Below are positions 1 to 18,172 of a stretch of DNA of 64,000 bases, one piece after another. The position numbers and the translations under genes were made by a program. The notes under the pieces were generated by a model. That model worked only from the letters and a program-made list of their open reading frames with translations. It was not told the origin of the DNA and did not search any database. The stretch spans positions 1 to 64,000 of IMG/VR virus record IMGVR_UViG_3300027832_000011; one strand, written 5' to 3'. The stretch comes from an uncultured virus (IMG/VR IMGVR_UViG_3300027832_000011) (lineage: Duplodnaviria > Heunggongvirae > Uroviricota > Caudoviricetes). Numbering within the stretch: position 1 is the first letter of the stretch; the number at the start of each line of letters is the position of its first letter.

Positions 1-42
1 CACGGGTTTGGCAAAATGGCTGTTTAGTTCTTCTATCAACAT
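1..42 (-). CDS. 5' end of an ORF starting inside the hairpin (MLIEELNSHFAKPV...), runs off window
   Basis: ATG at 42-40; same 14 codons as the N-terminus of ORF 3802-4491. Confidence 0.55.
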   Translation of the reverse strand, partial: MLIEELNSHFAKPV

Positions 43-116
43 TTGTTTTTAATTTTTAAGTTTAGTTTTTCAATTTAGCATTCGGTTCAGCCACTTCGCC
101 AAGCCCGAACCCGTTA
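1..116. repeat. attC-like hairpin, exact direct-repeat copy of 4450-4565 (left end cut by window)
   Basis: 116 nt identical to 4450-4565; arms cgggtttggcaaaatggctg / cagccacttcgccaagcccg; ends in GTTA. Confidence 0.9.
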
Positions 117-908
117 GTGGCAATACTCCAAAGCCCTCCGAACAGCTATATCGAAATATTGTTTTTCCTTTTCTATCCCTATTGATTTGCGATTTAATTT
201 GATACAAGCCAAATTAGTTGTCCCTGACCCCATCGTATTGTCTAAAACTATATCGCCTTTATCAGTATAAGATTTCACAAGCATTTCAAGTAAAGCAATA
301 GGTTTTTGTGTCGGGTGAATAGTTCCATCAAGTTTAGTTTTCTGTTTATCCGAAGCAAATACTTGTACGCTTCGTGGGTATCTATCAGTTTCTCCACCAC
401 CGCTTACGTCTTGTTTTACTTTTCCATATACTTCTGTTTTATTACAAACTTCCGCTCTTTTTGTATAAGTATTTATAGGGCTATGCCCTTCGGTTTTTTG
501 TGGGTTAAACTTTGGGCTTTTCTTATAAAACACTAAAATATTTTCGTGTGCTTTCATAGGCATTTTCTTTGCGTTAAAATATCCAGTTGCCTGTGTTTTC
601 TCCCAAATCCATTCGTATTTTAACCATTCTAAATTTGAGCATCCAAGCACTTTATCAAATGGTGTTTGAGCAAATAAAATCACTACCCCATTTTTTTTAA
701 GTATTCTTTTGTATTGCTCCCAAAGTTTTCCCAAATCTAAAACCGAATCCCATTTGCAGTTAGTAGTTCCGTAAGGTAAATCACAAATTATGGCATCAAT
801 AGTATTGTCCTCTATAAAAGGAAAAATATCGAAGCAATCAGCATTAAGAAAAGTACTGCCACTAACATCGGTTTGGCAAAATTGGGGGTTTATTGGTTTA
901 TTAAACAT
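114..908 (-). CDS. DNA methyltransferase, N4-C/N6-A (beta class)
   Basis: DLPYG catalytic motif, HPTQKP, VLDNTMGSGTT SAM-binding motif, IGIE. Confidence 0.93.
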   Translation of the reverse strand: MFNKPINPQFCQTDVSGSTFLNADCFDIFPFIEDNTIDAIICDLPYGTTNCKWDSVLDLGKLWEQYKRILKKNGVVILFAQTPFDKVLGCSNLEWLKYEWIWEKTQATGYFNAKKMPMKAHENILVFYKKSPKFNPQKTEGHSPINTYTKRAEVCNKTEVYGKVKQDVSGGGETDRYPRSVQVFASDKQKTKLDGTIHPTQKPIALLEMLVKSYTDKGDIVLDNTMGSGTTNLACIKLNRKSIGIEKEKQYFDIAVRRALEYCH

Positions 909-988
909 TTATGATTTTAATTAACATTAGTGATAATTTGAGCGTTTCGTTTTCAAAGCCCCCAACTTCGCCAAGTCGAGGCTTGTTA
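863..988. repeat. attC-like hairpin
   Basis: TAAC-atcggtttggcaaaattggggg ... cccccaacttcgccaagtcgaggctt-GTTA. Confidence 0.85.
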
Positions 989-1192
989 GGCGACAGCTTC
1001 CACTACCGCAGAAAGTAAGCCGTAAAATTCAGGATTTCCACAATTTGGGCAAACTAAATTAGTCCAACCTTCACTATCTTTTTGCTTTGCTTTTTGTTCG
1101 TCTGTACCTTGCCATTTACATTTCTTTTTTGAGCATTCGTAATGTGTGATTTTAACTTTATCAGACATTATTGAGTATTTGCGTTTTGCCAT
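986..1192 (-). CDS. small Zn-ribbon-like protein
   Basis: CxxxxC...CPNC. Confidence 0.7.
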   Translation of the reverse strand: MAKRKYSIMSDKVKITHYECSKKKCKWQGTDEQKAKQKDSEGWTNLVCPNCGNPEFYGLLSAVVEAVA

Positions 1193-1464
1193 TACGATTG
1201 ATTTATAGTTTCAGAATCTTCATACAAAGGCTTTCCAATAAATGGGCAAAATTTTGCGTAAACCATCATTTCTTTGTAAGTCTTAGAATAGTTTTCTCCT
1301 TTTTTTGTTCGATACATACACGGTATCATTAAATGCCTGCCTTCTGTACTTCCTAAGAAAAAAGTTGAAGCATTAAAACCCGCTTGAGGGTCGTTTGTTT
1401 TTTCTCTAACTGCTTTTTCAGTTTCCGTAATTGCACTCCAATTTTCTGAAATTTTCTTTTCCAT
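1192..1464 (-). CDS. hypothetical phage protein
   Basis: 90 aa ORF coupled to 986-1192; FCPF motif. Confidence 0.7.
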   Translation of the reverse strand: MEKKISENWSAITETEKAVREKTNDPQAGFNASTFFLGSTEGRHLMIPCMYRTKKGENYSKTYKEMMVYAKFCPFIGKPLYEDSETINQS

Positions 1465-1520
1465 TTTTGTATTTATTTAATAATTAATATTTGTTGTTGT
1501 AAATAAAAAGCCGAATCGCC

Positions 1521-1646
1521 TAACACGTGTTTTGCGACATTGTGAGTTTGCTGGTTCAATCGTGTTCAGTGTTCGCATTATATTTATTTTTGAGTTCATG
1601 TTTAATTTTTCCGAAGTTCACAACCTCGCAAAGCACGGAAACGTTA
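1521..1646. repeat. attC-like hairpin
   Basis: TAAC-acgtgttttgcgacattgtgag ... ttcacaacctcgcaaagcacggaaac-GTTA. Confidence 0.85.
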
Positions 1647-1655
1647 TAAGCAACC

Positions 1656-1976
1656 CTAAAACAAGCGTAACGACCTGAACCAATTTAAAATTCTATTCTT
1701 TTCACCGAGAGGATAACCCCATTTTCCAGTAACAATAAAGGCAAACGGTAACGCTATAAGCATTAGTAACATAAGCACAATTGCGAACGGTAACGTTAAT
1801 CGCATCCACACGTTTACAGGTGTCTTTTTTTCAGTGAAGAAATCAACTCCTAATTCTTGCCATCTATCACACATTTCTTCGCTAGGCACTTTGTTTAATT
1901 CAGGGAATATTTCTCTGAATTTTGGAATGTAATTCGCATCGTTGTGCGACCAAGTCCGTTTTAATTTTCTATACAT
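1656..1976 (-). CDS. hypothetical membrane protein
   Basis: 106 aa with one long hydrophobic segment. Confidence 0.7.
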   Translation of the reverse strand: MYRKLKRTWSHNDANYIPKFREIFPELNKVPSEEMCDRWQELGVDFFTEKKTPVNVWMRLTLPFAIVLMLLMLIALPFAFIVTGKWGYPLGEKNRILNWFRSLRLF

Positions 1977-2018
1977 ATTTTAGTTTTAATTGATTAATTC
2001 CGAAAGAAGGGCAGCTTA

Positions 2019-2081
2019 TAACCGCACCTACACGCAATTTTTGTGAAAAACAAAAACTGCAAGTGTAGCTGCGAAGCGTTA
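2019..2081. repeat. attC-like hairpin (short)
   Basis: TAAC-cgcacctacacgca ... tgcaagtgtagctgcgaagc-GTTA. Confidence 0.85.
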
Positions 2082-2091
2082 TAAGAAATAG

Positions 2092-2283
2092 CTAACTAAT
2101 ATCTATTTCATTACCACTTTTAGGATGAACTCGCATGTAATCGTCAGTTCCATCTAAAGATATTTTATTGATTGTTAATCTACCATCTATTGATTCAGAT
2201 AACCTATATCTATTGCCGTTTATCTCTATGGTAGCATTTCTAACTTCGATGTATTCTTCGTCCCTTTTTATTTGTATTTTCAT
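2092..2283 (-). CDS. hypothetical protein
   Basis: 63 aa ORF filling one cassette unit. Confidence 0.7.
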   Translation of the reverse strand: MKIQIKRDEEYIEVRNATIEINGNRYRLSESIDGRLTINKISLDGTDDYMRVHPKSGNEIDIS

Positions 2284-2318
2284 AATTACTTTTGGTTTAA
2301 TTTACCCGCTACTTCTTA

Positions 2319-2392
2319 TAACAGGTGTTTGTAAATACCAGCCGAATTTATGTTGGTGTGTAGGCTGGCATCTACAAGCAACGGGAACGTTA
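2319..2392. repeat. attC-like hairpin (short)
   Basis: TAAC-aggtgtttgtaaataccagcc ... ggctggcatctacaagcaacgggaac-GTTA. Confidence 0.85.
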
Positions 2393-2401
2393 TGTGCAAG
2401 G

Positions 2402-2839
2402 CTACTTCTCGTTTTCAAAACAACCTATTCTCTCAAGATAATTCTCAATTGTTTTCCAACAAGCAAATGGTCTTTGAGATAATTCTAAATTGTAAATTAA
2501 AGGGCAACCTAGCGCACTATCATCAATCATTAATTCAGCATAACTTTTCGGAGAAGTTGTCCAATTTAATTGTGTTGGATTTTTTTGAATACCGTAAAGT
2601 TTAATTTCATTTTGATTAAACCAATTTACAGCATCTGTTAAAAATTTACCTGTAACATTTTGAATTGTTGGGTCAATAACTGGTTTTGCTTCTTTTCTGT
2701 CTGAACGCATAGTAAATAATATTAATTGATGTCCGTTATCAACTAATCTTTTTAATACTTTTTCAGCACCAATACCTTTTCCAATATTTGGGAAATCGTG
2801 AGTTACACAAGTTCCGTCAAAATCAATATTTATTGTCAT
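2402..2839 (-). CDS. HAD-superfamily phage protein
   Basis: IDFDGT motif I, LILFT-R, MIDD motif IV. Confidence 0.8.
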   Translation of the reverse strand: MTINIDFDGTCVTHDFPNIGKGIGAEKVLKRLVDNGHQLILFTMRSDRKEAKPVIDPTIQNVTGKFLTDAVNWFNQNEIKLYGIQKNPTQLNWTTSPKSYAELMIDDSALGCPLIYNLELSQRPFACWKTIENYLERIGCFENEK

Positions 2840-2868
2840 AATTTAGTTTTAATTACCCGTCCAGCACA

Positions 2869-3141
2869 TAACAAGTGTTTGGCAAAAAAGCGGGTTTGGT
2901 TTATAATTCAAGTTTTTTTATTCTAATTGCGTTTATTGGTTTCTGAAAATCTCGTTTTCGAAATCCGCTTCTTCGCAAAGCACTCGGACGATGAGAAAAA
3001 GACTCCGTCTTTCCCTCATCAAGCCTCGACTACGTCGGACGACGAGAAAAGTCCTTTCAGTCCTTCTCTCATCTCCAACTTGGACTCATTTCTTTCGAGA
3101 GAAATCTCTCTCAGAAACGAAGACCAAGTCGAGGCTTGTTA
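2869..3141. repeat. compound attC-like hairpins with variant GAT/ATC cores and two ORF-less mini-units
   Basis: Hairpin 2869-2992 ends GATGAG; tcggacgaYgagaaaa at 2984 and 3035; ttcYctcatc at 3011 and 3064; ccaagtcgaggcttgtta at 3124 identical to 971. Confidence 0.7.
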
Positions 3142-3150
3142 TAGGAAATA

Positions 3151-3705
3151 TTATTTTTTCAGAACGTTCTCGAATACTATGACGTTTTCCAAAACATTAC
3201 TACATAAAAATACACTTGAAAAAGGTGGATTTAAACTTGGTTTTTGGTCGTCATAACTTTTAAAATAACTTATTCTTTTATCGAAATACATTACTTCAAT
3301 TTTATTATTCTTAAACATTTCAAATCGTTTTTTACTTTCAAACAATCCTACAACTCCAACAAGCATTGCAAATGGTATTCCTAATTCAAATAGTTTCAAA
3401 AAAACTTATGCTTTTATTGAGTAAGGTGGATTTGAAATAATATAATCAAAATTTTTACACTTTTCTTTATTTGCGTCAAAAAAATCAAAACCATCTTCAA
3501 TATGGCTATTGCTCACAATATGTCCTTGTTTGGTTAATAATTTCACAAAGTTACTTTCTTTAGTATCAAATGGACACCATATTTTACTATTTGATTTTAA
3601 GTGTTTTAATAATGGTTCAATCGCATAAGTTGGAGTGTAAAACTCATCATTTGGATTTATTTTTCCTTGCTTTTCAGCTTTGTTTGTAATCAAATCTAAT
3701 TTCAT
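3151..3705 (-). pseudogene. adenine methyltransferase-like gene (NPPY) interrupted by one in-frame TAA
   Basis: NDEFYTP, WCPFD, DFF, ISNPPYSIKA*VFLKLFELGIPFAML; ORFs 3406-3705 and 3151-3399 are in the same frame. Confidence 0.8.
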
Positions 3706-3743
3706 ATTTAGTTAATTTAGTTTATAAAAAATAATACATCCTA

Positions 3744-3804
3744 TAACAGCACCTAACCAAAATTTTTGCAAGGGCAAAAACTATCGGTTAGCTGCAAAAC
3801 GTTA
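3744..3804. repeat. attC-like hairpin (short)
   Basis: TAAC-agcacctaacc..tttttgc/gcaaaaa..ggttagctgcaaaac-GTTA. Confidence 0.85.
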
Positions 3805-4491
3805 TCGGCAAGCGTAAGACGACCACTGCACAGCCATAGCGTTTGCAATTCCATCAAATGTTTTGCTTCTTAATTTTGCTCTTTCATCTTTCGGTAACTT
3901 CCAAGCATCGGCATACCAAGTAGGCATACTTTTACCGCTCGCAAATTCAGTTCGTTTGGGTGGCTCAACAATATTTGTTGGTTCTAATTTTGGCAATCCT
4001 TTCAACCATAAGCAAGTCTTTTTTTCAAACGCATCGCCAAATTGATAAGGGTTTATAATTTGGTCAGGTTTTCGCCATTCACTACTCATTATGCCTACGG
4101 GGTTTTCAATCGCTATAAATTTGCAATCAGCATCAGCAAACATTTTAAAGAATTTAATTGCAAACTCTCTGTCTTTGTGCCTTTGTATTGCTTGTTCTCC
4201 ATAGCGTTCAATATTAAACCATCTATTCCCTGTTACGGTAATATAAGTGCAAGGCGGAAACGCAATTATCATATCCCATTTTAATTTTAGCAAGTCTGTT
4301 ACATCTTCTTGTAAATGCCATTCAGGGTGTCCACCACTTTCAGGCAGTAAATCACAGCTAAATGCTTCGTGTCCTAATTTGCGTAACTCCTTTGTAACAG
4401 ATTGGCTTTCCTCACAAGCAACAAGCACTCGGAGAACGCCAGCCGATAACACGGGTTTGGCAAAATGGCTGTTTAGTTCTTCTATCAACAT
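3802..4491 (-). CDS. phage DNA cytosine methyltransferase-like protein
   Basis: VLVACEES, SCDL, AFPPCT (PC motif), IENP, KKTCLWL, RSKTF. Confidence 0.8.
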   Translation of the reverse strand: MLIEELNSHFAKPVLSAGVLRVLVACEESQSVTKELRKLGHEAFSCDLLPESGGHPEWHLQEDVTDLLKLKWDMIIAFPPCTYITVTGNRWFNIERYGEQAIQRHKDREFAIKFFKMFADADCKFIAIENPVGIMSSEWRKPDQIINPYQFGDAFEKKTCLWLKGLPKLEPTNIVEPPKRTEFASGKSMPTWYADAWKLPKDERAKLRSKTFDGIANAMAVQWSSYACR

Positions 4492-4565
4492 TTGTTTTTA
4501 ATTTTTAAGTTTAGTTTTTCAATTTAGCATTCGGTTCAGCCACTTCGCCAAGCCCGAACCCGTTA
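4447..4565. repeat. attC-like hairpin, identical to 1-116
   Basis: Exact direct repeat; contains the ATG (4491) of the neighbouring gene. Confidence 0.9.
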
Positions 4566-4632
4566 TATGAAATAGGGTGGCAGAGCTTCGATTGAACATT
4601 CTGTTAGAAAAATCAAATAAAAGCCCAACCAC

Positions 4633-4698
4633 TAACAGCATATATAAAAAATGGTGGGTTCGCTATTTACGTAACAGACACAAAGCGATGGACCGTTA
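4633..4698. repeat. attC-like site with non-matching (chimeric) arms
   Basis: TAAC-agcatatata ... gatggacc-GTTA; arms pair poorly. Confidence 0.6.
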
Positions 4699-4702
4699 TA
4701 GG

Positions 4703-5038
4703 TTATTTTAGAACAGACCCTAATAAGTCCAACATTTCCTCAATAGACCAATCTTTTTTTACAAATTTGTAAGACCCATTTTTTAACTCTTTAAATTTTG
4801 GGAAAAGGTAAAATTCGTGAATAACGCTTCTAAACTCTTTACCTATAAAAGAAATTTCATACCCTGTTTTTTCAAAGTGTTTGTTTAATTTATTTGACAG
4901 TCTTGTGCATTTGTTTTCTGTGTCGGCTTTTTGCCAGCACTTTAAAAACGGAATATATTTTCCTTCTTCCCAAAGCGGGTAAGTGATAAATTCTTCACTT
5001 ATGAATGGTATTAATTTTTCTATTTTTTGATTTATCAT
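4703..5038 (-). CDS. hypothetical protein
   Basis: 111 aa ORF filling unit 4695-5077. Confidence 0.7.
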   Translation of the reverse strand: MINQKIEKLIPFISEEFITYPLWEEGKYIPFLKCWQKADTENKCTRLSNKLNKHFEKTGYEISFIGKEFRSVIHEFYLFPKFKELKNGSYKFVKKDWSIEEMLDLLGSVLK

Positions 5039-5073
5039 ATTTTTAAATTTAATTCGTGAATAAAAACAACCTA

Positions 5074-5150
5074 TAACGCACGCTTGGTAAAAGTGGTGGT
5101 TTGAAAATTTGCGCTTCTATGCCCCACCTGACACAAACCCGAAAACGTTG
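5074..5150. repeat. attC-like site (degenerate)
   Basis: TAAC-gcacgcttggtaaaagtgg ... ccacctgacacaaacccgaaaac-GTTG. Confidence 0.65.
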
Positions 5151-5174
5151 TGTGTAAGACTAAGATTTCCTTTA

Positions 5175-5360
5175 TTAACACGATTGGTCGCATCCGTTAC
5201 CTAAACAACAAGATAATCCACACCAACCTGTTTTATTATCGTAAATTTCATCACATTCTTCGCAAATATCTTTTCCAGTGTATTCACCATATTTATCACA
5301 ATACTCATCGCATCCTTCGCAATATAATTGACATTGTTATGTTTTTTCGTAACTTTTCAT
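5175..5360 (-). pseudogene. Cys-rich small protein gene with TAA at codon 8 (not in ORF track)
   Basis: MKSYEKT*QCQLYCEGCDEYCDKYGEYTGKDICEECDEIYDNKTGWCGLSCCLGNGCDQSC*. Confidence 0.65.
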
Positions 5361-5399
5361 AATATATTTAGTTTTATAAACCCACCAAGCACTAGGACG

Positions 5400-5669
5400 T
5401 TAGTGGTAATTTAATAGAACGGCAGACTTTAGATTACTCGCACCATCTGACGTGTCTATAAACATTCCATAATTGAAGTAAAGATTATTTTTAGTTTGTA
5501 AAATAATTTCCTTTGTTCTTGTCTTTACTTCAACAATTTCAAACACCTTAAATCGAAATGATTTTCTTGGGTAGTCGTGCATATCTCGGTGAAATTCACA
5601 AGCTATTGTGTCGCCTTTTTGCAAACCTTCAAAGTCTGCTACTGTTTTTAATTCTTTACTTTGTATCAT
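5400..5669 (-). CDS. hypothetical protein
   Basis: 89 aa; stop codon is the TTA of a GTTA core at 5399. Confidence 0.7.
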   Translation of the reverse strand: MIQSKELKTVADFEGLQKGDTIACEFHRDMHDYPRKSFRFKVFEIVEVKTRTKEIILQTKNNLYFNYGMFIDTSDGASNLKSAVLLNYH

Positions 5670-5844
5670 TTTTGGTACTTTACGAGTGTTTTGTCGATTA
5701 AAAATCTAACCTTAAATCTTCCTAAATTGTCAGTTTTTATAGTTTGTTTGGAGTTCTCCCCAAGTCTATTTTTAAAATCTATTGCGTGTTTTTCACTATA
5801 AAAAACTTTAGTCGCATATTTTTGAATCCCTTTCATAATTAAAG

Positions 5845-6339
5845 CTACTTATAATATTGGTGAATAGAATGTCGTTTTTCGTTTTGAGAATCAATTTTAT
5901 TAGAATGCCCGATAAACCATATTCCATTTGATTTTTTACACCACAATTTTTTATTATTTACTGTTCTTTGAAAAATCCCATCAGTTTCTTTTTCTTTTCT
6001 TGTATTGAAAGCATTCCATTTGTATTTACCGTAGGCAATAAATAACGTTATAGTTGATTCTCCTTTTATCTCATCAATTCTATGATAACAGGAATGCTTT
6101 CTTTTTATAATTGATAAAAAACCATGGCTACGCACTTTTTCAATCTTATTCTCTATAAAAGTTTCACTGTACCCACCTTTTAAAATTATTGATATATAGT
6201 TGAATGGGTGATTATGAAAAAGAGTTGTTCTGTCTTTATCAGTAATTTTATGTAATCTTATATGTAAATTTCTGATTTTTACTAAAGTGTATCTCTGTAA
6301 AAAATCTTTAATGTTTGTGTATGGTTTGAATAAAGTCAT
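5845..6339 (-). CDS. cupin-like phage protein
   Basis: LH...FHNHPF..ISIILKGGYSE...HRI...TLF pattern. Confidence 0.65.
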   Translation of the reverse strand: MTLFKPYTNIKDFLQRYTLVKIRNLHIRLHKITDKDRTTLFHNHPFNYISIILKGGYSETFIENKIEKVRSHGFLSIIKRKHSCYHRIDEIKGESTITLFIAYGKYKWNAFNTRKEKETDGIFQRTVNNKKLWCKKSNGIWFIGHSNKIDSQNEKRHSIHQYYK

Positions 6340-6508
6340 TCTATTAAAATTTATTGTTTAATAATCCGAAACGAGAGCATAACAACACCTAAACAAGATG
6401 ATTGGCTCGGTGCTTCGTTTTAAAGTTTATCGTTTGAATTACCCATTGTTCTTCTTATTAAAATCAACCACCTCGTTTAGCTTCGAAAAGTAACTGTCTA
6501 TGCTGCAA

Positions 6509-6859
6509 TTAAGTAATTAAGAAAATTTTAAAATCTAATAGTTGCTTTTCCGCTTCTTCTAAAGTGTGAAAGCTTCCTAACCCTATTGTTTTACCTTTAA
6601 ACTCCATAGACACATAAAACAATCTGTTTTTTTTATTATAATATATTCTTTTTGGCATTATTTTACTATGTTCATTATAAAATAATTTACTAAATTCAGA
6701 ATAAATATTATAATCTAAATCTTCAATACCTGTGCTTTTACCTAAAGATAATTGTTTTTTATTAACTCTATCGTAAAATTTTATATACCCGTTAATGTCT
6801 ATTCTGATAAATTTCATAATATTTTTTATTTTTAAAACCCGCACAAATGATAACAGCAT
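6509..6859 (-). CDS. AP2-like DNA-binding domain protein
   Basis: C-terminal FYVSMEFKGKTIGLGSFHTLEEA. Confidence 0.55.
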   Translation of the reverse strand: MLLSFVRVLKIKNIMKFIRIDINGYIKFYDRVNKKQLSLGKSTGIEDLDYNIYSEFSKLFYNEHSKIMPKRIYYNKKNRLFYVSMEFKGKTIGLGSFHTLEEAEKQLLDFKIFLIT

Positions 6860-6941
6860 ATTTGCGCTATTGCCGTACTAGGATTTGGTTGTTATTTTGT
6901 ATTTCAATAAATTCGGTATTTTATAACTTCAGGTAGGTTTT

Positions 6942-7220
6942 TTACATTAACTTTATTTTAAGGTTTTTAAGTATTTCTTTCCCAATTATCACATCAACTT
7001 CTTTATGATGTTTTATGTCGTCATATTGCTCTTTAAATTGCCATTCGCACTTATCTTTTATTTGTTCTGTGTATCCATCACGTATTACACCATACACTGA
7101 TTGTAACGCATATTCCTCATCCTTTATAGTATCATCATAAACATATCCTTTAATGTTTTGGGAAAATATTTTCTGAATATCAATTTCAACTTCTGTTTCT
7201 ATTTTAAACTTCATTACCAT
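6942..7220 (-). CDS. hypothetical protein
   Basis: 92 aa ORF in array. Confidence 0.65.
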   Translation of the reverse strand: MVMKFKIETEVEIDIQKIFSQNIKGYVYDDTIKDEEYALQSVYGVIRDGYTEQIKDKCEWQFKEQYDDIKHHKEVDVIIGKEILKNLKIKLM

Positions 7221-7348
7221 AATAAAAGCTACTTATAACAGCAATTACACGCAATTGCTACATTGTGATTAATTTAATGTTTATTTTGTACCTTTCAAAT
7301 CCGTGTTAATCTGAAAGATGGGTTTTGTGTTTTTACGCAACGGGAATG

Positions 7349-7636
7349 TTAGCGGTAATGCTTCCTAAAATACCATAAACAAGCAGTTAATGATTCCCAT
7401 CCTATTTCTTCACCAACTCTAATCCAAGTATCTCTATCAAACTCCGCACCTTCCCATCTGCTTGTATATTTCTTTATTACCTCAAGATTGTTTTTTGTCA
7501 ACCCAAATGTAACTTTAGCACTACCAATAACATCGGTTTTATTCAATTCCGAATCTTGTGGTATATTCAAATCTTCCTTCATAATTACGTTTTGTTTAAA
7601 ATTAAAATTTAGTTTTTTAAGTTCGGTACTAAACAA
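7349..7636 (-). CDS. hypothetical protein (true start possibly the later ATG, MKEDL)
   Basis: stop at GTTA core 7348; N-terminus (LNKTDVIGS) read through a hairpin arm. Confidence 0.6.
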   Translation of the reverse strand: MFSTELKKLNFNFKQNVIMKEDLNIPQDSELNKTDVIGSAKVTFGLTKNNLEVIKKYTSRWEGAEFDRDTWIRVGEEIGWESLTACLWYFRKHYR

Positions 7637-7815
7637 AGCCGAAAATCTTATCGGTAAGGATTATTAAAATCTATTTCGATAACCATATATCGTTTGATAG
7701 TTATAGTTGGTTTAATATGTGGATACTTTAGTAATTCTAACAATCTTCTTATCATAATTTAAACTTTTGTATTTCAATGCCGCTACTGACAGCAACACTC
7801 GAACGTTATGACCAA

Positions 7816-8121
7816 TTATCTAACCGAAACCTCGACCCAATAACAACCGCTTATGTTTGAAAGTTTATTCCATCTTTCAAATTTAGTGTGAATATGTTCA
7901 TCAGATATCCAAGTCATTATTCCGTATTTTTGCGTCTCAAATTGTTTATAATAGGCTTTCCATTTTTTTAAAATTTTATTAAATTTGGTACAATATTTAG
8001 TAGCTGTTGTTTTCTTACTTGTTGTGAAAATTACAACGTCAAAGTCATTTTCATAACTTCCACCCGAATATCTAACCAAGTAATAACTGGTCATAACGGC
8101 TTGTTTATTCAATTGTGGCAT
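7816..8121 (-). CDS. hypothetical protein
   Basis: 101 aa; unit bounded by GTTATGACCA/TGGTCATAAC. Confidence 0.7.
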   Translation of the reverse strand: MPQLNKQAVMTSYYLVRYSGGSYENDFDVVIFTTSKKTTATKYCTKFNKILKKWKAYYKQFETQKYGIMTWISDEHIHTKFERWNKLSNISGCYWVEVSVR

Positions 8122-8146
8122 GGTTGATTAATTTATTGATTAGTTA

Positions 8147-8290
8147 ATTTTTGTTATTGTTAAATCTCTCATAAGTCCTATATTTTAGTGTTTCGCTTTA
8201 TTGCTGGTGTAAAGATACAACCAATATTTATATAAACAACACTTTTTTGTGATTATTTTTAAAATATTTACTAATTTAACATAAATCAGC
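8147..8290 (-). promoter_or_regulatory. repeated promoter-like block (copies at about 9586-9670 and 10256-10400)
   Basis: ~140 nt near-identical to 10256-10400; minus strand carries TTGTATCTTTAC resembling the Bacteroidota -7 box. Confidence 0.65.
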
Positions 8291-8502
8291 AACGTTGCGA
8301 AGCAAATTACCGTTATGTGTAATGGCTACGGAACATCTACCCAAGCCGCTGCTATTTTGAAACTTAATTCTTTTTTTAGAGTCTAATTTTGAAAATACTT
8401 CTATTATTTGATTTGTTTTCATAAATTTAAATATTTTTATATGAAATTAGTAACTGTAAATATAACTTTCCAAATTTTACCACTTATTATAGCTGTGAAA
8501 CG

Positions 8503-8832
8503 TTATAACTCAGTTGTCGTACTACCAAAATCTTCGAGTTTTTTTAATTGCTCATAATGTAAAGCCTTTAATAAGTAATCAAACCCACTAAATTGATAAA
8601 GAGAGTCTTTAAGTCTATTGAAATAACTGTCAAATTTAATAATTTCATCAAAAGTCAAGTCTGGTAATTCTTTAGATAAATAACCTTTAAAAAATTCAAA
8701 TCTTTTTTTAAATTCTTCATTAGTTCCTATGTCGGCAAAGTTTAATCTATTACCCGAGCTGTCTGATGACATTTTATCTATCAAATCGTCAAGTGAAGCG
8801 CATTTTAATAATAAGTTTTCTTCTATTTTCAT
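8503..8832 (-). CDS. hypothetical protein
   Basis: 109 aa; stop at GTTA core 8502. Confidence 0.7.
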   Translation of the reverse strand: MKIEENLLLKCASLDDLIDKMSSDSSGNRLNFADIGTNEEFKKRFEFFKGYLSKELPDLTFDEIIKFDSYFNRLKDSLYQFSGFDYLLKALHYEQLKKLEDFGSTTTEL

Positions 8833-8930
8833 AATTTTTGTGATTTAAAAAGCCTAAGTGATAACAATGGATAATACTAATTAAGTTCTCGTTACGTCTT
8901 CTTATTATAACTACAAAACGTTAGTAGTGA

Positions 8931-9128
8931 TTACCTATTAATGGTAAGTTGAAGACGTTTTATTCTACCTAACCAAACATCTCTATAGCAAACATTACTA
9001 CCAACAGCATATATAAATTCAATTCCTTTTTGATTTAATAACATTTCTTTTCTTTGCTCGTATTTTAGTGCTTTTTTACAGCAATAGTTTATAAGCTGTC
9101 TAACTAAATATTGTTTTATTTTACTCAT
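8931..9128 (-). CDS. hypothetical protein
   Basis: 65 aa ORF in array. Confidence 0.55.
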   Translation of the reverse strand: MSKIKQYLVRQLINYCCKKALKYEQRKEMLLNQKGIEFIYAVGSNVCYRDVWLGRIKRLQLTINR

Positions 9129-9281
9129 ATTTTGTGTGTCATAACTAACGCTAAAAGTATAATACTAATTACAGCATCGGTCTTTAATTTATAGTTTGTT
9201 TTGTGTTTACCCCGTTTAACCCAAAAATTTGTCTGTACTTATCGGTAACAGCGCAAGATATATGAAACGTTATGTGAGATG

Positions 9282-9533
9282 CTAGTAGGAATCTAAAAAC
9301 ACCTCAAAATCATCTCTTTTTAACGAACCATAATTTTGTTTTTTATGCCATTCAAAAAAATCATTAAACATTTTTTTTCTTAAATCATAATCTTCTTTTG
9401 GTGGAACTATTGAATTATCTTCATTAAAAAGAAATTCAATAATATGTGTTGCAATTTCTCTTTCTGTTTTTTCATTTTTTTCTGAAATAATAATTCCAGT
9501 TAATACGTTTGTCAGCTCTTTTATCGTCCTCAT
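9282..9533 (-). CDS. hypothetical protein
   Basis: 83 aa ORF in array. Confidence 0.65.
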   Translation of the reverse strand: MRTIKELTNVLTGIIISEKNEKTEREIATHIIEFLFNEDNSIVPPKEDYDLRKKMFNDFFEWHKKQNYGSLKRDDFEVFLDSY

Positions 9534-9585
9534 TTTGTTTTAATTTGTTAATTACTAAAAAGCACAATATTTGTTTATTTCTATG

Positions 9586-9670
9586 GCGTAAAGATACAAC
9601 TAATAGTTATATAAAAAATACTTTTTCATGATTATTTTTAAAATATTTACAAATTAAAAATAAACAGCGG
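9586..9670 (-). promoter_or_regulatory. diverged copy of repeated promoter-like block
   Basis: gtaaagatacaactaata...attatttttaaaatatttac...taaacagcgg shared with the other two copies. Confidence 0.6.
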
Positions 9671-9719
9671 TTAACATCACATAAGTGCAACCAAAAGGTA
9701 TGCACCTATGTGTCAACCG

Positions 9720-9965
9720 TTATAAAGAATTATACATCTCGATTAACAACTTATCTACAACTAAAATAGCTTTCTTTTTATCTGAAAAACACTTACCACC
9801 TAAAAACAAATCTAATTCTTCGCATGTCGCAAATTCACTTATGTAATCATATTCATCATCATTAATCCACCAAGCTGCCTTAATTGCATCATCAAATGCG
9901 TCAGTAACCCCGCCAAACCCCTTGATGATTATGTCAGTTCTATTCTTTCTACCTTGTCTACTCAT
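9720..9965 (-). CDS. hypothetical protein
   Basis: 81 aa; unit bounded by GTTATAAAGA/TCTTTATAAC. Confidence 0.7.
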   Translation of the reverse strand: MSRQGRKNRTDIIIKGFGGVTDAFDDAIKAAWWINDDEYDYISEFATCEELDLFLGGKCFSDKKKAILVVDKLLIEMYNSL

Positions 9966-10005
9966 AATAACTCTTTATAACAGCAATTACTGCATTTTGA
10001 TTAAT

Positions 10006-10281
10006 TTAAAGTTGGGGAATCACCCTTTCAATTCCGTTATCTACAATATCTAAATCGGAATAACAAAGATAATGCCTTGTTATCGTTTTTTGATGTATAA
10101 TTCGAATGTCTAAATGTTCATATCCGTCTTTACCTAAAATATATTTCATCCCTGCTTTTACATCAACTTTTGAAGAAGCTAGAAACCCATTGTCATAATA
10201 TTTAACAAATTTTAGTTTATGAGTTTTACAATATTCTTTTATTTTTACCTTCAAAATTTTTGTTGTTGTTAAATCCATCAT
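10006..10281 (-). CDS. hypothetical protein
   Basis: 91 aa directly downstream of the promoter block. Confidence 0.65.
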   Translation of the reverse strand: MMDLTTTKILKVKIKEYCKTHKLKFVKYYDNGFLASSKVDVKAGMKYILGKDGYEHLDIRIIHQKTITRHYLCYSDLDIVDNGIERVIPQL

Positions 10282-10400
10282 AAGCCCTATATTTTAGTGT
10301 TTCGCTTTATTGCTGGTGTAAAAATACAACTAATATTTATATAAATAATACTTTTTTGTAATTATTTTTAAAATATTTACTAATTTAACATAAACAGCGG
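10282..10400 (-). promoter_or_regulatory. copy of repeated promoter-like block
   Basis: near-identical to 8173-8290. Confidence 0.65.
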
Positions 10401-10442
10401 TTTTATTCAATTGAGAGTTTACTTGTAAAACGTTAGGCACAA

Positions 10443-10658
10443 TTAAGTCACACCTAACCAATTTCCGTTTTCATCGCACAATACCATATCATTACTAAAG
10501 TACGCAGATACTTTATCTTCTTCCCCGTAAGGTTTGAAGTAAAGTTGTCCATCGTATTTTTTATAAACTTGGTGAACACCATCTTTTTGTACATCAACAA
10601 AACTCCCTTCTTTAACTTCATTATCAAATTTATCGGTACATTTTATATATTTTTCCAT
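10443..10658 (-). CDS. hypothetical protein
   Basis: 71 aa; unit bounded by GTTAGGCACA/TGTGCCTAAC. Confidence 0.7.
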   Translation of the reverse strand: MEKYIKCTDKFDNEVKEGSFVDVQKDGVHQVYKKYDGQLYFKPYGEEDKVSAYFSNDMVLCDENGNWLGVT

Positions 10659-10816
10659 AAATAACTGTGCCTAACAATATGTATAAGCAATAGCTGTTAG
10701 GTATTTTTAACTATTGCGGTTGTTTAATTATTTATTTTGGTTCTATTTACTAACTTATGCGAGATGCCACACGAACCGCATAGCGTGAGCATTGGAGTTT
10801 TTAAATGTGTTATCGG

Positions 10817-11188
10817 TTATTTTAGAGTAACGTTTTCCAAAATGTTAAGTTCTTTAAACTTTAAATAAACAATCATTTTTTCTTCATCAGTAAAATTCTT
10901 AAAGTTGAACCATTGTCCAATAAATTGTCTTTCATTTTCTTTTCTTACTTTAATTAAAACTTCCTCTGTTTGTAGAAACCATTTTCTATATCTGTCTCCA
11001 TATTCACAAAAACTTGTTTTTGTGTTATGCCATTCCGTAGTAGGTTCATTTATTATTTTTCTACCGTTAGACAAAACCGCTTGTGTTTTTGTCAGTCTTA
11101 CAACTTCACCAAGTATGTAATTAATTCTTCCTGTCCATCTTGAAGTTTCTGCGATATATATTTTATCGCCTATTTTTAATTTTTCCAT
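10817..11188 (-). CDS. hypothetical phage protein
   Basis: 123 aa, LKIGDKI...VVRLTKTQAVL SH3-like start. Confidence 0.7.
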   Translation of the reverse strand: MEKLKIGDKIYIAETSRWTGRINYILGEVVRLTKTQAVLSNGRKIINEPTTEWHNTKTSFCEYGDRYRKWFLQTEEVLIKVRKENERQFIGQWFNFKNFTDEEKMIVYLKFKELNILENVTLK

Positions 11189-11262
11189 TTTATTTTTGAT
11201 TTAGTTTGTTGTTAAAATAACCAACTTCTTATGGCTGTAAAATGTTATAAGAAATAGCTATG

Positions 11263-11463
11263 TTAATAGTCCCCAGATAAATATTCAATTACTTGAGGTT
11301 TATTAATCACCATTTCATTAACGACCATTTCTGAAGTATGGGTAATCGTTTTTATCGCCATTTCTTCAGCTTGTTCTTGATTAAATGCTGCTAATACTAA
11401 ACAATTCCCCACTGGGTACACCCCATTAAATTCTACTCTATATATTTTCAACCGTTCAATCAT
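11263..11463 (-). CDS. hypothetical protein
   Basis: 66 aa ORF in array. Confidence 0.65.
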   Translation of the reverse strand: MIERLKIYRVEFNGVYPVGNCLVLAAFNQEQAEEMAIKTITHTSEMVVNEMVINKPQVIEYLSGDY

Positions 11464-11520
11464 AATTTTAAATATTAATTTGTATTTGTGATTGTGAGGG
11501 TAGTTTTTAATTTGGTAAAA

Positions 11521-12141
11521 CTACTCATGCCTTCCAATCGTTAATTTATTTTTTAAAATATCTTTTATTTCTAGCAACGAAAATATACTATACTCCCCAA
11601 ACATATTGTAATAACTGTCAACCCCCACGTCCATAGTCTTGTATTTGTGAACTTCTTTCATTATGGTATTTTCATCCCCATGTAAGTGTCCGTGTAAATG
11701 AAAAGACCCCTCGTCTTGATTGTTCCAATTGAATTGTGGGTAATGTGAACAACTAATAAATTGTTTATCTACAAATAATTCTAAATAATCCCCAGTATGT
11801 AACAACTTTTCTATTTGACAATCAGTAACAACTTTTAGTAGCTTCCCTCTGTTACAGTGATTCCCAAACAACATAATCACATTTTCACACTTAATCCCAA
11901 GTAAGAATTCCACATAATTCTTTTCTCCCATCATAGTATCCCCAAGTAAAACTAATAAGTCGTTTTTCTCAACTTTCCGATTAATCTCCGCAATTAAATC
12001 ACTATTCATTTCTTCTACACTACCAAAATCTCTCCCGAATTTGATGACCGCTTCGTGATTTAAATGTAGGTCAGAACTGAAAAATACGTTATCAACTTCA
12101 ATGGTTTTCTTGGGATATGTTGAATTTATTTTAATTTTCAT
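11521..12141 (-). CDS. calcineurin-like metallophosphoesterase
   Basis: SDLHLNH, LGD, GNH, SHYP, HGHLH, DVGVD. Confidence 0.9.
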   Translation of the reverse strand: MKIKINSTYPKKTIEVDNVFFSSDLHLNHEAVIKFGRDFGSVEEMNSDLIAEINRKVEKNDLLVLLGDTMMGEKNYVEFLLGIKCENVIMLFGNHCNRGKLLKVVTDCQIEKLLHTGDYLELFVDKQFISCSHYPQFNWNNQDEGSFHLHGHLHGDENTIMKEVHKYKTMDVGVDSYYNMFGEYSIFSLLEIKDILKNKLTIGRHE

Positions 12142-12189
12142 AAGTTTTAATTTTATTGTTAATTTTTACCTAAACAGGTTAATTTAATA

Positions 12190-12197
12190 CAAAGATA
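12190..12197 (-). promoter_or_regulatory. Bacteroidota-type -7 promoter box (TATCTTTG)
   Basis: matches TAnnTTTG upstream of 12141; same box at 14143, 15972, 17045, 17318, 18199, 20011, 21357, 22397, 25252, 34554, 40794, 42344. Confidence 0.7.
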
Positions 12198-12266
12198 GTA
12201 ATTATTTTTAATTATACAACTATAATGATTATAAATAAGGTTATCACAAGACAAAACCTCAGGACG

Positions 12267-12584
12267 TTATGCGCAACTTATGTCAGTAATTGTAATTATA
12301 TCTTGTTTGTGATATTGGTCGGTTATTATATTTGGTTCGCTATGAAAATCAGTTACTCTAATGTGAACTTCATTTTTAGTGAAAAGTATGGGGTACCTAA
12401 TACTTCCAGCGTTTTTAGAAAAAGACCCTTTAATTATTTTTACGTTTTTATGTAAGTACAACCCTTTGTATTTATCATTTTTAGCAACTAAGCAAGTTTT
12501 TCCGTTATATATAACTCGCATATCATCAAGCGTGCAGTTTTCCCTTTTGTACGGCTTAATTATTAATGTAAATGAATGTTTCAC
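12267..12584 (-). CDS. hypothetical protein
   Basis: 105 aa; stop at GTTA core 12266. Confidence 0.6.
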   Translation of the reverse strand: MKHSFTLIIKPYKRENCTLDDMRVIYNGKTCLVAKNDKYKGLYLHKNVKIIKGSFSKNAGSIRYPILFTKNEVHIRVTDFHSEPNIITDQYHKQDIITITDISCA

Positions 12585-12585
12585 A

Positions 12586-13050
12586 TTATAATTGGTAAAA
12601 TTGCTTAATTAATCCTTCGTGTTTTTCCATAAATTCAGCTGCAATCTCGAGAGTGTTAAATGTTAAAAAGTTAAATGTGTTGGAATAAACTTGAATACTT
12701 AATTGATTTTCATAAATTTCTAGGCAATACTTACTATTTGATTTACCCCAGTCAACATCACAATCTCCACAATCATACATTAATTGTGTTAATTGCGCAT
12801 AAGCTAATGTGGATTTTGCTTGTTTTTGTGTTTTAAAAACGTTTTTGTTTACTACACTTGTGATTATCGAAAATGAAGTTTTTGAAATACAAGAGACTTC
12901 TTCAATATAGTAACCATCTATTTCATCTAATTGCTCCCAACTATCCGCAACCTTTGAGGGTTTTAATTCAGGATAATCTATGTAAATTTCAGTAGCCATT
13001 TCAGGCATTTTGTTAAGCATTATTAAAGCTTGTTCTTTTGTTATTTTCAT
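12586..13050 (-). CDS. hypothetical phage protein
   Basis: 154 aa, A.AQL.QLM...DW...FL.F...A..F pattern. Confidence 0.7.
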   Translation of the reverse strand: MKITKEQALIMLNKMPEMATEIYIDYPELKPSKVADSWEQLDEIDGYYIEEVSCISKTSFSIITSVVNKNVFKTQKQAKSTLAYAQLTQLMYDCGDCDVDWGKSNSKYCLEIYENQLSIQVYSNTFNFLTFNTLEIAAEFMEKHEGLIKQFYQL

Positions 13051-13143
13051 TTTATATTAATTTAGTTATTATTCCGACAGCTAAGGTAGTTGGGTACTTG
13101 ATGTTACCAGCAAGGGATAAACCGTTAATAGAGATAGCTACGT

Positions 13144-13350
13144 TTAGTAATTTTCAAGCTCTTCTTTTACCTCTACCCACCACTCTTTACCCAAGAAAGA
13201 ACCAAATGGTTTGATTGCATTTATAATTTCATCAACTAAAATTAACGCACATATAACAGCATCTTCCGTATATATTGTAGTGCTATTATTTTTGAATAAA
13301 TCACCTTGTATTTTATTTACTATTTGTTTTGCTTTTTCTTTTGGTTCCAT
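13144..13350 (-). CDS. hypothetical phage protein
   Basis: PKEKAK...CALILVDEII...W.EVK.E pattern. Confidence 0.7.
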   Translation of the reverse strand: MEPKEKAKQIVNKIQGDLFKNNSTTIYTEDAVICALILVDEIINAIKPFGSFLGKEWWVEVKEELENY

Positions 13351-13578
13351 AGTTACTTTTGAAAGATTGTGTTCTTAAATTTCATCAAAATTTGTTACGA
13401 TTTTAATTTTACATTATTTAAGTCGTAACTGTTTTAACATATTCAACATATTCAACCTCTTTTTCAATAATTCTTTCATAATCTTATATTTAGTAAACCG
13501 TTTTACGGGTTTTTGTGGTTAATTGGTATTTATGTTACTCGAAGGTATTTTATTTACTAAATTATATAGTTAAACCAA

Positions 13579-13923
13579 CTATTTGTTATGGTCAATCGTT
13601 ACGTGATGCTGTGCGACCCAAAAAACAACAGCTTCGTAGACCGCGTCAAGTTTGGTTTCACCAACAAATTCCATATCACCTAATTGGACGCAATTACCGA
13701 AAATATCAAGTTCGTTATCATCCCCACCAAAACTTTCTATTTTAATAACAACAGGCATCAACTCATCCCAAGTATTGTAAAATGGTAATCCATCATAATC
13801 TTTAAATTCTAAATTATTGTAATAATAATATTCACCACCTGTATTCACGCTTATACCTTTAATGGGGGTAATCCCCATAAACCTTGCTATTTTTAACGTA
13901 TTTTCTGTGTATTCGTATTTCAT
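13579..13923 (-). CDS. hypothetical phage protein
   Basis: IARFMG...WDELMPVV.KIE pattern. Confidence 0.7.
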   Translation of the reverse strand: MKYEYTENTLKIARFMGITPIKGISVNTGGEYYYYNNLEFKDYDGLPFYNTWDELMPVVIKIESFGGDDNELDIFGNCVQLGDMEFVGETKLDAVYEAVVFWVAQHHVTIDHNK

Positions 13924-14413
13924 TTCTTATATTTTAAAATTACCTTTAAAACCCCTATTTTTAAAATTTAATTTTTCTTTAGGTTTTTTATTTTTAAAAA
14001 TAATTTTATTTAAGTTAAAGAAATAAAATAATTCCCTAAATAAATAAATAAACATACATATTATTATAATTTTAACCACCATTGTTTTACATATTTTAGG
14101 GTTACAGTTCCATCAAATAAAGGTTTTAACTTTACCATGATACAAATGTACTTATTTTTTTTTAAATAACCAAATTTATTTTTTAAATGTATTAGTAAAT
14201 AAAGCTGAATTTATAACCATCAAAAATAATGTGGTGCTGGATATGATAAAACATTTTACTAAAATTACTATACATAACGAAATTAATGTGTCTAATTCAC
14301 TCTCACCATTTTTAATTGAAAACTCAGATATTGGTAATGTGAATGCCCAAATTAATATCCCAATGAAAAAAAATGTTTTAATAATGTTATGGTTAAAAGT
14401 TGCGATTTTATAT

Positions 14414-15631
14414 TTAAATTCCATCATAACTATCCTTGTTCTCTTTTTCTTTAAACTTATAATAATATTGTGAAGCTCTTCGATATAAATATTTTCTATC
14501 CTTATCACTTATTTTATCCCAACCTACGAAATAACTCTTAAAGTTAGCCAAGTAGTTTTTTAAAGTTATGAAATTATTAGGTTCAGAACTATCATCTAAC
14601 GGTATTTCATCTATTGTTTGTGTAAACCTAGCGTTTATTTCGTGTTTCAACTTCAGGTAATTTGTAAATGCTGATGTTTTCCCATCATCTTTTAAATTTT
14701 CAACATTTGAGTAGTATTTTTTTGAGGATTTGTCTGATACGTATTTACCATCACTAATGAAATTATCATAAGCATGTTGTAATTCATGTTTTAGAACAGT
14801 TAATAAATTAGAGGATGTTAATAAGCTATAAATTTTACTTTCAACAATACCCCTATCATCATATTTGGTTACCATTTTTTTATACATATTAAATATTGTA
14901 TCGTGTGGTATGTTTAGTATAATACCACCAGATTTACCATCAAAACTATTGAATTGCCCGAGAGATGGTATTGATATAAACCTAAAGGCCAAATTAAATC
15001 CACCAACAAAATCATTCATAACCCCATAATCACCTTTTAACCCTTTAAATGGGTTTGATATAACCGAATTTGGTGATTTACCTCCATTATTTAAAATTTC
15101 ATTTATGAAATAATTAATGTGGGCCTTAACCACGTCAATCGCTAAATTACCAATATTATTTTGCGATTCAAAATCCTCATCTATTAATTTAACCCCATCA
15201 CTAAAAGTGTTTAAATCAAATATTATCTTATCAACCCTCAATTTTTCGATTAGATTACCCTCATCTCTACTCTGAATATCTTTTCTTAACATAAACGTTG
15301 TTACTCTATCGTTTCTAACAATAACCCAGAATTCATTACCTGTAGAATCCTTAAGTAATTCATTATTTATGCGATAGTATTCCCTATCACCTATCTTTAG
15401 GTAATATTTAGATTGTGGGTTAATTTTGAACCCACCTAACTTTATACCATAAGATTTGGTGGGTTCAAATTTGATAGTGTCTAATAAGTTTAGATTTTTG
15501 ATAATATTAAATTTATCGGTGTCATCCAAATCTGTAGGTGCTAAAACTGAAAACCTACTTTTTATCCTTCCAACCTCATGGCTAGTTTTATAAGCTTCCT
15601 TTAAAATCGTGTTTTTCTTCTTTAATCTCAT
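14414..15631 (-). CDS. putative zincin-like (HExxH) protein
   Basis: HELQHAYD plus downstream HEINARF. Confidence 0.6.
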   Translation of the reverse strand: MRLKKKNTILKEAYKTSHEVGRIKSRFSVLAPTDLDDTDKFNIIKNLNLLDTIKFEPTKSYGIKLGGFKINPQSKYYLKIGDREYYRINNELLKDSTGNEFWVIVRNDRVTTFMLRKDIQSRDEGNLIEKLRVDKIIFDLNTFSDGVKLIDEDFESQNNIGNLAIDVVKAHINYFINEILNNGGKSPNSVISNPFKGLKGDYGVMNDFVGGFNLAFRFISIPSLGQFNSFDGKSGGIILNIPHDTIFNMYKKMVTKYDDRGIVESKIYSLLTSSNLLTVLKHELQHAYDNFISDGKYVSDKSSKKYYSNVENLKDDGKTSAFTNYLKLKHEINARFTQTIDEIPLDDSSEPNNFITLKNYLANFKSYFVGWDKISDKDRKYLYRRASQYYYKFKEKENKDSYDGI

Positions 15632-15668
15632 TTTAAAATCGTGTTTTTCTTCTTTAATCTCATTTTAA
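15600..15668. repeat. 32-nt tandem duplication over the start codon of 14414-15631
   Basis: tttaaaatcgtgtttttcttctttaatctcat twice (15600, 15632) plus partial third. Confidence 0.9.
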
Positions 15669-15704
15669 TAAATATAAAACTGTAATCTAGATAATTTATT
15701 TTTT

Positions 15705-15887
15705 TTATCTTTCCCCATCTTTTTCTAACTCAACAAAAACCACTATAAAGCCACCTTCTTTTTTAAATACTAACTCCCCATTGTAATTAGAAGCATCAGA
15801 TATTTTTCTGTACTTATCGACAATGAAATCGAAATCATTTATAAAATTAATATGTTTTTCCCTACCTAAAATTCTAACGTGTTTCAT
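15705..15887 (-). CDS. hypothetical protein
   Basis: 60 aa ORF. Confidence 0.6.
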   Translation of the reverse strand: MKHVRILGREKHINFINDFDFIVDKYRKISDASNYNGELVFKKEGGFIVVFVELEKDGER

Positions 15888-15908
15888 AATCTCTAATTGT
15901 TTAATTTT

Positions 15909-15966
15909 GTGAACTACTAACCCACTTAAAAAAGGTGGGTTAGTTTTACGCTCTGTTCTATAAATA
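15909..15966. repeat. intergenic hairpin, possible IS200/IS605-family end remnant
   Basis: 10-bp inverted repeat actaacccac/gtgggttagt flanked by gtgaact and tttacgctc...tataaa. Confidence 0.4.
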
Positions 15967-16065
15967 TATTACAAAGTTACTAAAAATATAGATTAATCGT
16001 AATATTTTTTAATTTATTTAAAACACACGATAAGCAAAAAAAAATGTGTTTTTCGCTATCTACTT

Positions 16066-17541: not shown

Positions 17542-17788
17542 ATTCTTCTTCATTCTCATCATTTGGTTTGACTTTTTTAACACCAGCAAAAAACTCTGAC
17601 GCTGTAAATCCCAAACCAGCAATAACAATATATGACATCGTATCATACATGTATTGGACAACAATTAAATTAAAAAATAAATTAGAGATAAATGCGATTG
17701 TTAAAAGTAAGAAAGCACTTATTGAAATAACTCTTTTACTTGAAACCCCTTTATCTGAGGAAAAACACTTTTTAATGAATTCTTTCAC
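17540..17788 (-). CDS. small two-TM membrane protein (holin-like)
   Basis: SSKR followed by two hydrophobic helices and a charged tail. Confidence 0.6.
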   Translation of the reverse strand: MKEFIKKCFSSDKGVSSKRVISISAFLLLTIAFISNLFFNLIVVQYMYDTMSYIVIAGLGFTASEFFAGVKKVKPNDENEEE

Positions 17789-17809
17789 TGTAATAATTTT
17801 TAATATATG

Positions 17810-18172
17810 TTATTTTACATCAAAAACAATTTTATCCACACGTATTAGGTTACCCATTGAATCATTATTGGTAACTTTAAACTTATATTTACCTTTATTA
17901 ACTCTCCAAGAAAGTCTAACTGGTTTATTATCGATTACTAACCTTAAATTATTATCATTTGAAAACTCAAAAACACCTTTATACTCACCAATAATTTCAT
18001 CTATCTCAATTATCTTAATAACCTTACATTCAACAGAACTTACAGTTAGAGTTATTAAATTATCTTTAGTGATTGATACAACCACATCATCTAAAATTAT
18101 TGTTTGAGCTACATTAAAAGATGATGTTAACATCATAATTAAAAAACATGCTAAAAATTTATATAGTCTCAT
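17810..18172 (-). CDS. hypothetical exported protein
   Basis: N-terminal signal-peptide-like segment ending VAQ. Confidence 0.65.
   Translation of the reverse strand: MRLYKFLACFLIMMLTSSFNVAQTIILDDVVVSITKDNLITLTVSSVECKVIKIIEIDEIIGEYKGVFEFSNDNNLRLVIDNKPVRLSWRVNKGKYKFKVTNNDSMGNLIRVDKIVFDVK

Follow-up and report, generated by a model that had tools for sequence, protein, structure and literature searches.

The first 116 nucleotides (nt) of IMGVR_UViG_3300027832_000011, a contig from an uncultured large tailed phage of fresh water, recur without a mismatch at positions 4450-4565. The repeat represents a single hairpin recombination site (TAAC...G|TTA) from an integron-like array of cassettes in reversed orientation. 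The window analyzed here is the first 64,000 nt of that record and begins at its base 1; the full record is 76,017 nt long, classed as linear and 22% complete. Position 1 is thus where the contig begins, and an assembly edge sets the left limit of the repeat. The explanation we favour, and to which we give an even chance, is that integron-style copy-and-paste produced the whole methylase cassette (cassette M) a second time and that the copy at the edge is part of this duplicate. Duplication of the methylase gene and recent activity are likely but unproven. The probabilities that we attach to the duplication and its rivals are judgements and not computed values.

The repeated site and its crossover point

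The initial annotation described an exact duplication of 1-116 at 4450-4565, with identity that stops after GTTA, and comparison of the two copies agreed: there is no mismatch, and directly past GTTA the right-hand sequences part as GTTA-GTGG and GTTA-TATG. No other exact repeat in the 76,017-nt contig is as long, and because the next longest is only 37 nt, an identity of 116 nt is far above chance. The minus strand of both copies encodes MLIEELNSHFAKPV, and the ATG said to lie in each is found on that strand at 42-40 and 4491-4489. We refer to the site as R. Copy 2 is complete at 4447-4565 on the plus strand, contains the ATG of cassette M and is arranged as TAAC-N1-stem ... stem-N5-G|TTA; the repeat corresponds to this site minus its first three bases. 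Copy 1 (1-116, plus strand) is cut by the contig start and lacks the first three bases of TAAC, has its G|TTA core at 113-116, and holds the ATG of an open reading frame (ORF) running off the contig.

Cassette M (3802-4562, plus strand) carries a 229-amino-acid (aa) DNA methyltransferase ORF on the minus strand (4491-3802; PHROG 757), whose protein belongs to a 728-member cluster with members named DNA-cytosine methylase. Its limits were examined in ten viral loci (L002-L011, 93-98% identity) from 80 kept of 155 matches. DNA identity starts at G|TT (3801) in all nine loci having a left flank, representing 7 distinct contexts, and stops at GTTA (4565) in nine of the ten, again in 7 distinct contexts, with L011 having a different site. 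For cassette D, which lies just right of copy 1 (114-985, plus strand; 264-aa N6/N4 DNA methyltransferase ORF at 908-114, minus strand; own site 863-988), the start lies at GTTA, or ATTA in one case, in each of the 10 loci above the match threshold out of 12 tried. Given the M limits in L002-L011 and the D left limits in the ten loci, the crossover maps between G and TT of the core, which is an integron criterion. The earlier proposal that the right end of the repeat is the crossover core is upheld by these limits of M and D, and the outcome that was to refute it, boundaries in relatives unrelated to the GTT core, was not what we saw, as they do fall at G|TT.

In three of the loci (L006, L007 and L010) a hairpin site is lacking from the flank left of M, and M may have entered these phage genomes at secondary GTTA sites. 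The cassette system does make whole copies, because a Chitinophagales assembly (L171) contains, in its interior, an exact duplication of 420 nt that extends from G|TT to GTTA, at 10889-11308 and 17726-18145. We also observed a prophage-like region in the Lacibacter sp. MH-610 chromosome (L169) with three successive methyltransferase-like ORFs around a site of R's family.

The first 5 kb of the window is a row of units, each closing with a hairpin that has TAAC at its opening and GTTA or a variant at its end. Across nine sites the TAAC boxes pair with the start of their own cassette at 44/54 positions and with the start of the next cassette at 23/54, so the integron criterion that the R'' box pairs with its own cassette start is found here as well. 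The start of cassette D, GTTAGTGGCA, pairs 10/10 with D's own end, and that of cassette M, GTTATCGGC, pairs 9/9 with M's own end. Because the TAAC boxes pair with the start of the unit on their left, plus polarity is fixed even with the left flank missing. The stem starts 1 nt past TAAC and stops 5 nt ahead of the core in seven of the nine sites, giving the best ungapped stem an offset of 4 nt (1 versus 5) in those seven, of 5 nt in one and none in one. Canonical attC sites have near-symmetric spacers of 5/6 nt and an L box with extrahelical bases, a geometry absent from the best ungapped stems of the nine array sites. The minus (bottom) strand is the better folder in 7/9 sites, by margins of 0.5-4 kcal/mol; for R copy 2 the minus strand folds at -14.9 and the plus strand at -12.6 kcal/mol (z -2.7 versus -2.2). 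Cassette ORFs in 114-5038 are encoded by the minus strand, opposite to the direction usual in integrons, and the same direction is found in a 169-kb phage record (G001). Since the ATG of both D and M sits inside a site, their reading frames cross the core. An Rfam search of 1-16000 of the window returned no matches at E values up to 1.

Junctions, contig depth and the origin of the edge copy

Three freshwater runs (X1-X3) contain 95-97% of the words of positions 1-6000, and their short-word contigs were compared with the window; runs X5-X24 have small word shares only, and no habitat claim is based on them. The first junction, from R into D, is crossed by contigs covering 87-892 in X1 and X2, which run unbroken and mismatch-free at depths of 15.1 and 11.6. 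The second is covered by contigs from 4536/4537 onward in X1, X2 and X3 (depths 10.2, 9.4 and 9.9). These contigs open 29-30 nt, about one word, ahead of the two branch points, and the depth within R (23.3 in X1 and 18.9 in X2) comes close to what the two outgoing contigs add up to (25.3 and 21.0). Both junctions exist, at about single-copy depth, which bears out the statement in the initial annotation that the same site is joined to two right-hand neighbours, each junction being present in separate run assemblies.

These junctions also bear on whether the first 116 bases are purely an assembly artefact, an overlap glued to a neighbour that is not its natural one. Contigs of de Bruijn assemblies break at repeats, and in keeping with this the repeat copy stands at the first base of the contig and sites of this family lie near contig ends more often than expected: 11/98 are within 160 nt of an end, against an expectation of 2.2. 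The count of 11 comes from 13, with L263 dropped as not a contig end and L251/L252 counted once, and counting L202/L212, the two ends of one contig, once as well gives 10 (P 1.2e-4). A length of 116 nt is none of the usual assembly k values, and in difference to a simple repeat break, other assemblies support both junctions. Because both recur in the run assemblies, among them the mismatch-free contigs from 87 into D in X1 and X2, a pure artefact is very improbable, and in G001, too, a D-like cassette start adjoins a site from R's family. We consider this explanation largely refuted.

The evidence that leads us to favour duplication of the whole cassette, while leaving it unproven, is that the body of M is deeper than its flanks. 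Its depth is 20, 27 and 27.3 in X1, X2 and X3 against single-copy medians of 10.3, 9.3 and 9.9, or 1.9, 2.9 and 2.8 times as deep, where contig depth sums the organisms in a sample and is no copy number. The M contigs begin at the crossover in X2 and X3 (3800 and 3801), and M therefore has more than one left neighbour in those two runs.

A single copy of M in the phage could also account for the two junctions if the block 117-4565 existed as a separate circle of 4,449 nt excised at G|TT, or if a second array order co-occurred, and the assembler passed through the loop a single time. Excision of the block would leave precisely the junction seen at 113-117, and with short contigs the graph of a circle would be indistinguishable from that of a linear duplication. 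Also compatible with this is a 167,329-nt contig that contains the exact proteins of 3406-3705, M, 4703-5038 and all 11 tested further right, and none of the six tested in 114-2839. A 2.2-kb contig (L043, 1-2203) has a 127-nt terminal overlap, starts within such a site and contains a relative of M; it could be either a circular cassette or a loop made in assembly. Depth, on the other side, is equal in the three runs, at 8.6-13 for the block outside D versus 8.5-10.3 for the arm, which is unlikely for a non-replicating circle, and D shows no second left neighbour in X1 or X2, where its contigs start at 87. We therefore hold this possibility to be quite improbable. If the 167,329 nt are one contig, a second assembly would also connect 3406 via M to the phage arm. 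We rejected the idea that this contig proves a path around the block, because it holds the 3406-3705 ORF and its limit falls between 2839 and 3406, and not at M.

It is also possible, though on the unlikely side, that only the site is shared and not the cassette, with copy 1 on a different cassette that has the same allele and the contig starting where the left flanks diverge, in which case no recent recombination is implied. The site family of R has 98 matches in viral contigs and 13 in genome contigs. Among 89 distinct site-plus-flank records, 148 pairs have 3 or fewer mismatches in 116 positions; 114 of these have different bodies, and one different-body pair has 0 mismatches. The nearest of the 89 sites to R is L001, identical at 115/116 positions behind an unrelated body, which leaves R's left flank exactly at the base preceding position 1, whereas M relatives differ by 7-14. 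Two methylase paralogues in G001 likewise have 85 + 112 nt in common around their sites, and a repeat edge of exactly 116 nt would be expected from an assembly graph of this kind. What speaks for the duplicated cassette instead is the depth of M, at least 1.9 times in all three deep runs, together with the rarity of perfect identity (zero-mismatch pairs number only 2 among the 89 records) and of the allele itself, as only 1/89 sites lies within 6 mismatches of R. Since near-identical sites do occur on unrelated cassettes, an identical site alone proves neither duplication nor recent activity. The initial annotation took the repeat as a sign of a recent duplication or re-integration in an active array; the boundary at the core, the plus polarity and both junctions are supported here, and the depth excess over M favours a whole-cassette duplication without proving it.

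Besides the shared sites, several observations weigh against duplication of M. The M contig of X1 extends to 3776 with no branch at 3801, where a fresh insertion behind a new neighbour should branch. The depth excess of M could come from other genomes in the samples, M being common, as its cluster size indicates, and a variant of it reaching depth 84.5 in run X4. X1 is possibly the source sample, and X1-X3 possibly belong to one campaign. Sequence to the left of position 1 was recovered from no record or loose end among those listed, and the 76,017-nt contig, at 22% completeness, has no tyrosine recombinase. An exact scan of viral contigs for the R allele and the 3801 junction found nothing, in a set that may omit very near genomes, so that absence is not implied; the metagenome scan gave one locus only.

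If M was indeed duplicated, the steps would probably be as follows. The site would fold as a hairpin on the single-stranded bottom strand and serve as substrate for a small tyrosine recombinase like those that lie head-to-head with such arrays in phage relatives. The cassette would be excised, replicative resolution would keep the old copy where it was, and the resulting circle would re-insert closer to the entry point of the array. By polarity this entry point should be left of position 1, where the fresh copy is expected, and the assembler would then break at the repeated unit.

A putative partner recombinase and relation to integrons

Among the proteins encoded by the contig are a sigma factor, a ClpP-like protease, a single-strand binding protein and a UvsX-like recombinase, a gene content as in large tailed phages. 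Because 10 of the 13 genome loci with R's site family carry a Bacteroidota label, the sequences suggest Bacteroidota as the host group. In G001, a 298-aa recombinase stands head-to-head with a methylase-rich array of this kind, with the first G|TT about 25 nt ahead of the recombinase start. This part of the record (L280, G001 100000-119999) is a complete platform: it has the small recombinase, the entry site and arrays of cassettes with no fewer than nine methyltransferase-like ORFs. The same head-to-head arrangement with the first G|TT just upstream was found in 7/15 recombinase loci (L003, L084, L088, L162, L185, L273 and L283); in the remaining eight the first G|TT is more distant or absent from the stretch examined, and three further large records searched (G002-G004) have no such recombinase gene. 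In integrons, attI is found beside an integrase gene that is read divergently; for the array described here that position would fall outside the contig.

The G001 recombinase scores 154.8 against a cut-off of 265 for the integron-integrase model TIGR02249, and in the catalytic domain, between two aligned stretches, it is about 43 residues shorter than IntI4 (2a3v). Its closest structures are archaeal XerA. In related phages, such arrays come together with a small recombinase that is Xer-like and does not have the IntI insertion. Integrons are defined by an IntI integrase with an integron-specific insertion in the catalytic domain, according to the available text of PMC8138268. The array system works like an integron and departs from one in three features: the enzyme insertion, the site geometry and the gene direction.

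Copy-and-paste duplication of cassettes has been described for class 1 integrons in the available portions of two reports (PMC8024014; PMC3458562), and in one experiment with a class 1 integron it predominated over other outcomes (PMC8024014). As far as those portions go, our array resembles that process in its G|TT unit limits, in a duplicate expected nearer the entry point and in one site having two next cassettes; it differs in that the carrier is a phage, the genes are reversed, no IntI was found and the second gene copy is inferred. Another parallel is provided by the clusters of attC sites lacking integrases (CALINs) reported from virulent phages, with methyltransferase cassettes, including Polaribacter phage P12002L (PMC9892861). 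Shared with P12002L, in what is available of that paper, are phage-borne AAC...GTT hairpin sites, DNA methyltransferase cargo, a Bacteroidota host and no integrase in the record. Reversed arrays, start codons inside the site and an Xer-like partner enzyme are not described in that same available text, which does report that the first P12002L site showed no recombination with IntI1.

Conservation of attC sites in sedentary chromosomal integrons, of the Vibrio cholerae repeat (VCR) type, is covered in the available parts of PMC9892861 and PMC8618304. Such homogeneous families are like ours in having near-identical sites on unrelated cassettes, and unlike ours in that R has a 1-versus-5-nt spacer by the core and encodes the first 14 codons of its gene. 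Complete integrons are rare in Bacteroidetes, as stated in the text available from PMC9024848. Our literature search, with most subscription papers outside its reach, found no description of reversed Bacteroidota arrays with an Xer-like enzyme.

The methyltransferase cargo likely shields phage DNA from host restriction. A fuller picture, which we put forward tentatively, would have a very recent duplication of a methyltransferase cassette in a large Bacteroidota phage, brought about by an integron-like system that is uncatalogued. In it a small Xer-type recombinase without the IntI insertion would work on asymmetric (1-versus-5) DNA hairpins, which also provide the start codon of each gene, and would shuffle anti-restriction genes on phage genomes by copy-and-paste. 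The repeat alone is modest, as cassette duplication is already known from integrons and the contig edge truncates the present example; what it offers is a clean crossover map for a widespread cassette system of Bacteroidota phages. If the small recombinase truly moves folded sites, this would be single-strand hairpin recombination independent of the IntI insertion, and phages would own a rapid swap system for anti-restriction methylases. G001 defines the enzyme, the entry site and the cassette sites, making the mechanism directly testable.

Other units of the array

Between D and M the array holds six further units, and those with an assigned strand are on plus with their ORFs on minus. A two-ORF cassette (986-1643; 68 and 90 aa; site 1521-1646) is followed by one with a 106-aa ORF (1644-2078; short site 2019-2081), one with a 63-aa ORF (2079-2389; site 2319-2392) and one with a 145-aa ORF (2390-2990; PHROG 1238), whose site at 2869-2993 has the variant core G|ATG. 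The multi-hairpin unit at 2991-3138 has no assigned strand and no minus-strand ORF, folds strongly (z -5.3; minus strand -36.2 kcal/mol) and has G|ATG-type cores. Its last 18 nt are identical to the end of site 863-988; it falls in high-depth bins (36-67) in the runs and has no match among the fetched loci. The cassette directly left of M (3139-3801; short site 3744-3804) carries a methyltransferase gene divided by a stop into ORFs of 99 and 82 aa at 3151-3705, with cluster relatives of 184 aa (PHROG 799); X4 has a variant of this cassette at depth 88.

Right of R copy 2 is a short degenerate unit (4563-4695, plus strand) with start/end pairing of 1/6, likely a deletion remnant, and then a cassette with a 111-aa minus-strand ORF (4696-5147, plus strand). 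The array goes on right of 5147, more decayed, to at least 11.3 kb. Among cultured phages, 64 records match parts of the methylase and none reaches 80% coverage of the cassette. A search for relatives of the 405-aa ORF to the right of the array found none; a tandem 32-nt repeat at 15600-15668 duplicates the start of this ORF. Within the array there is also a second kind of repeat, a 140-nt non-coding sequence in three copies that are 67-94% alike (8146-8285, 9525-9664 and 10255-10394), located just upstream of minus-strand genes and perhaps representing early promoters.

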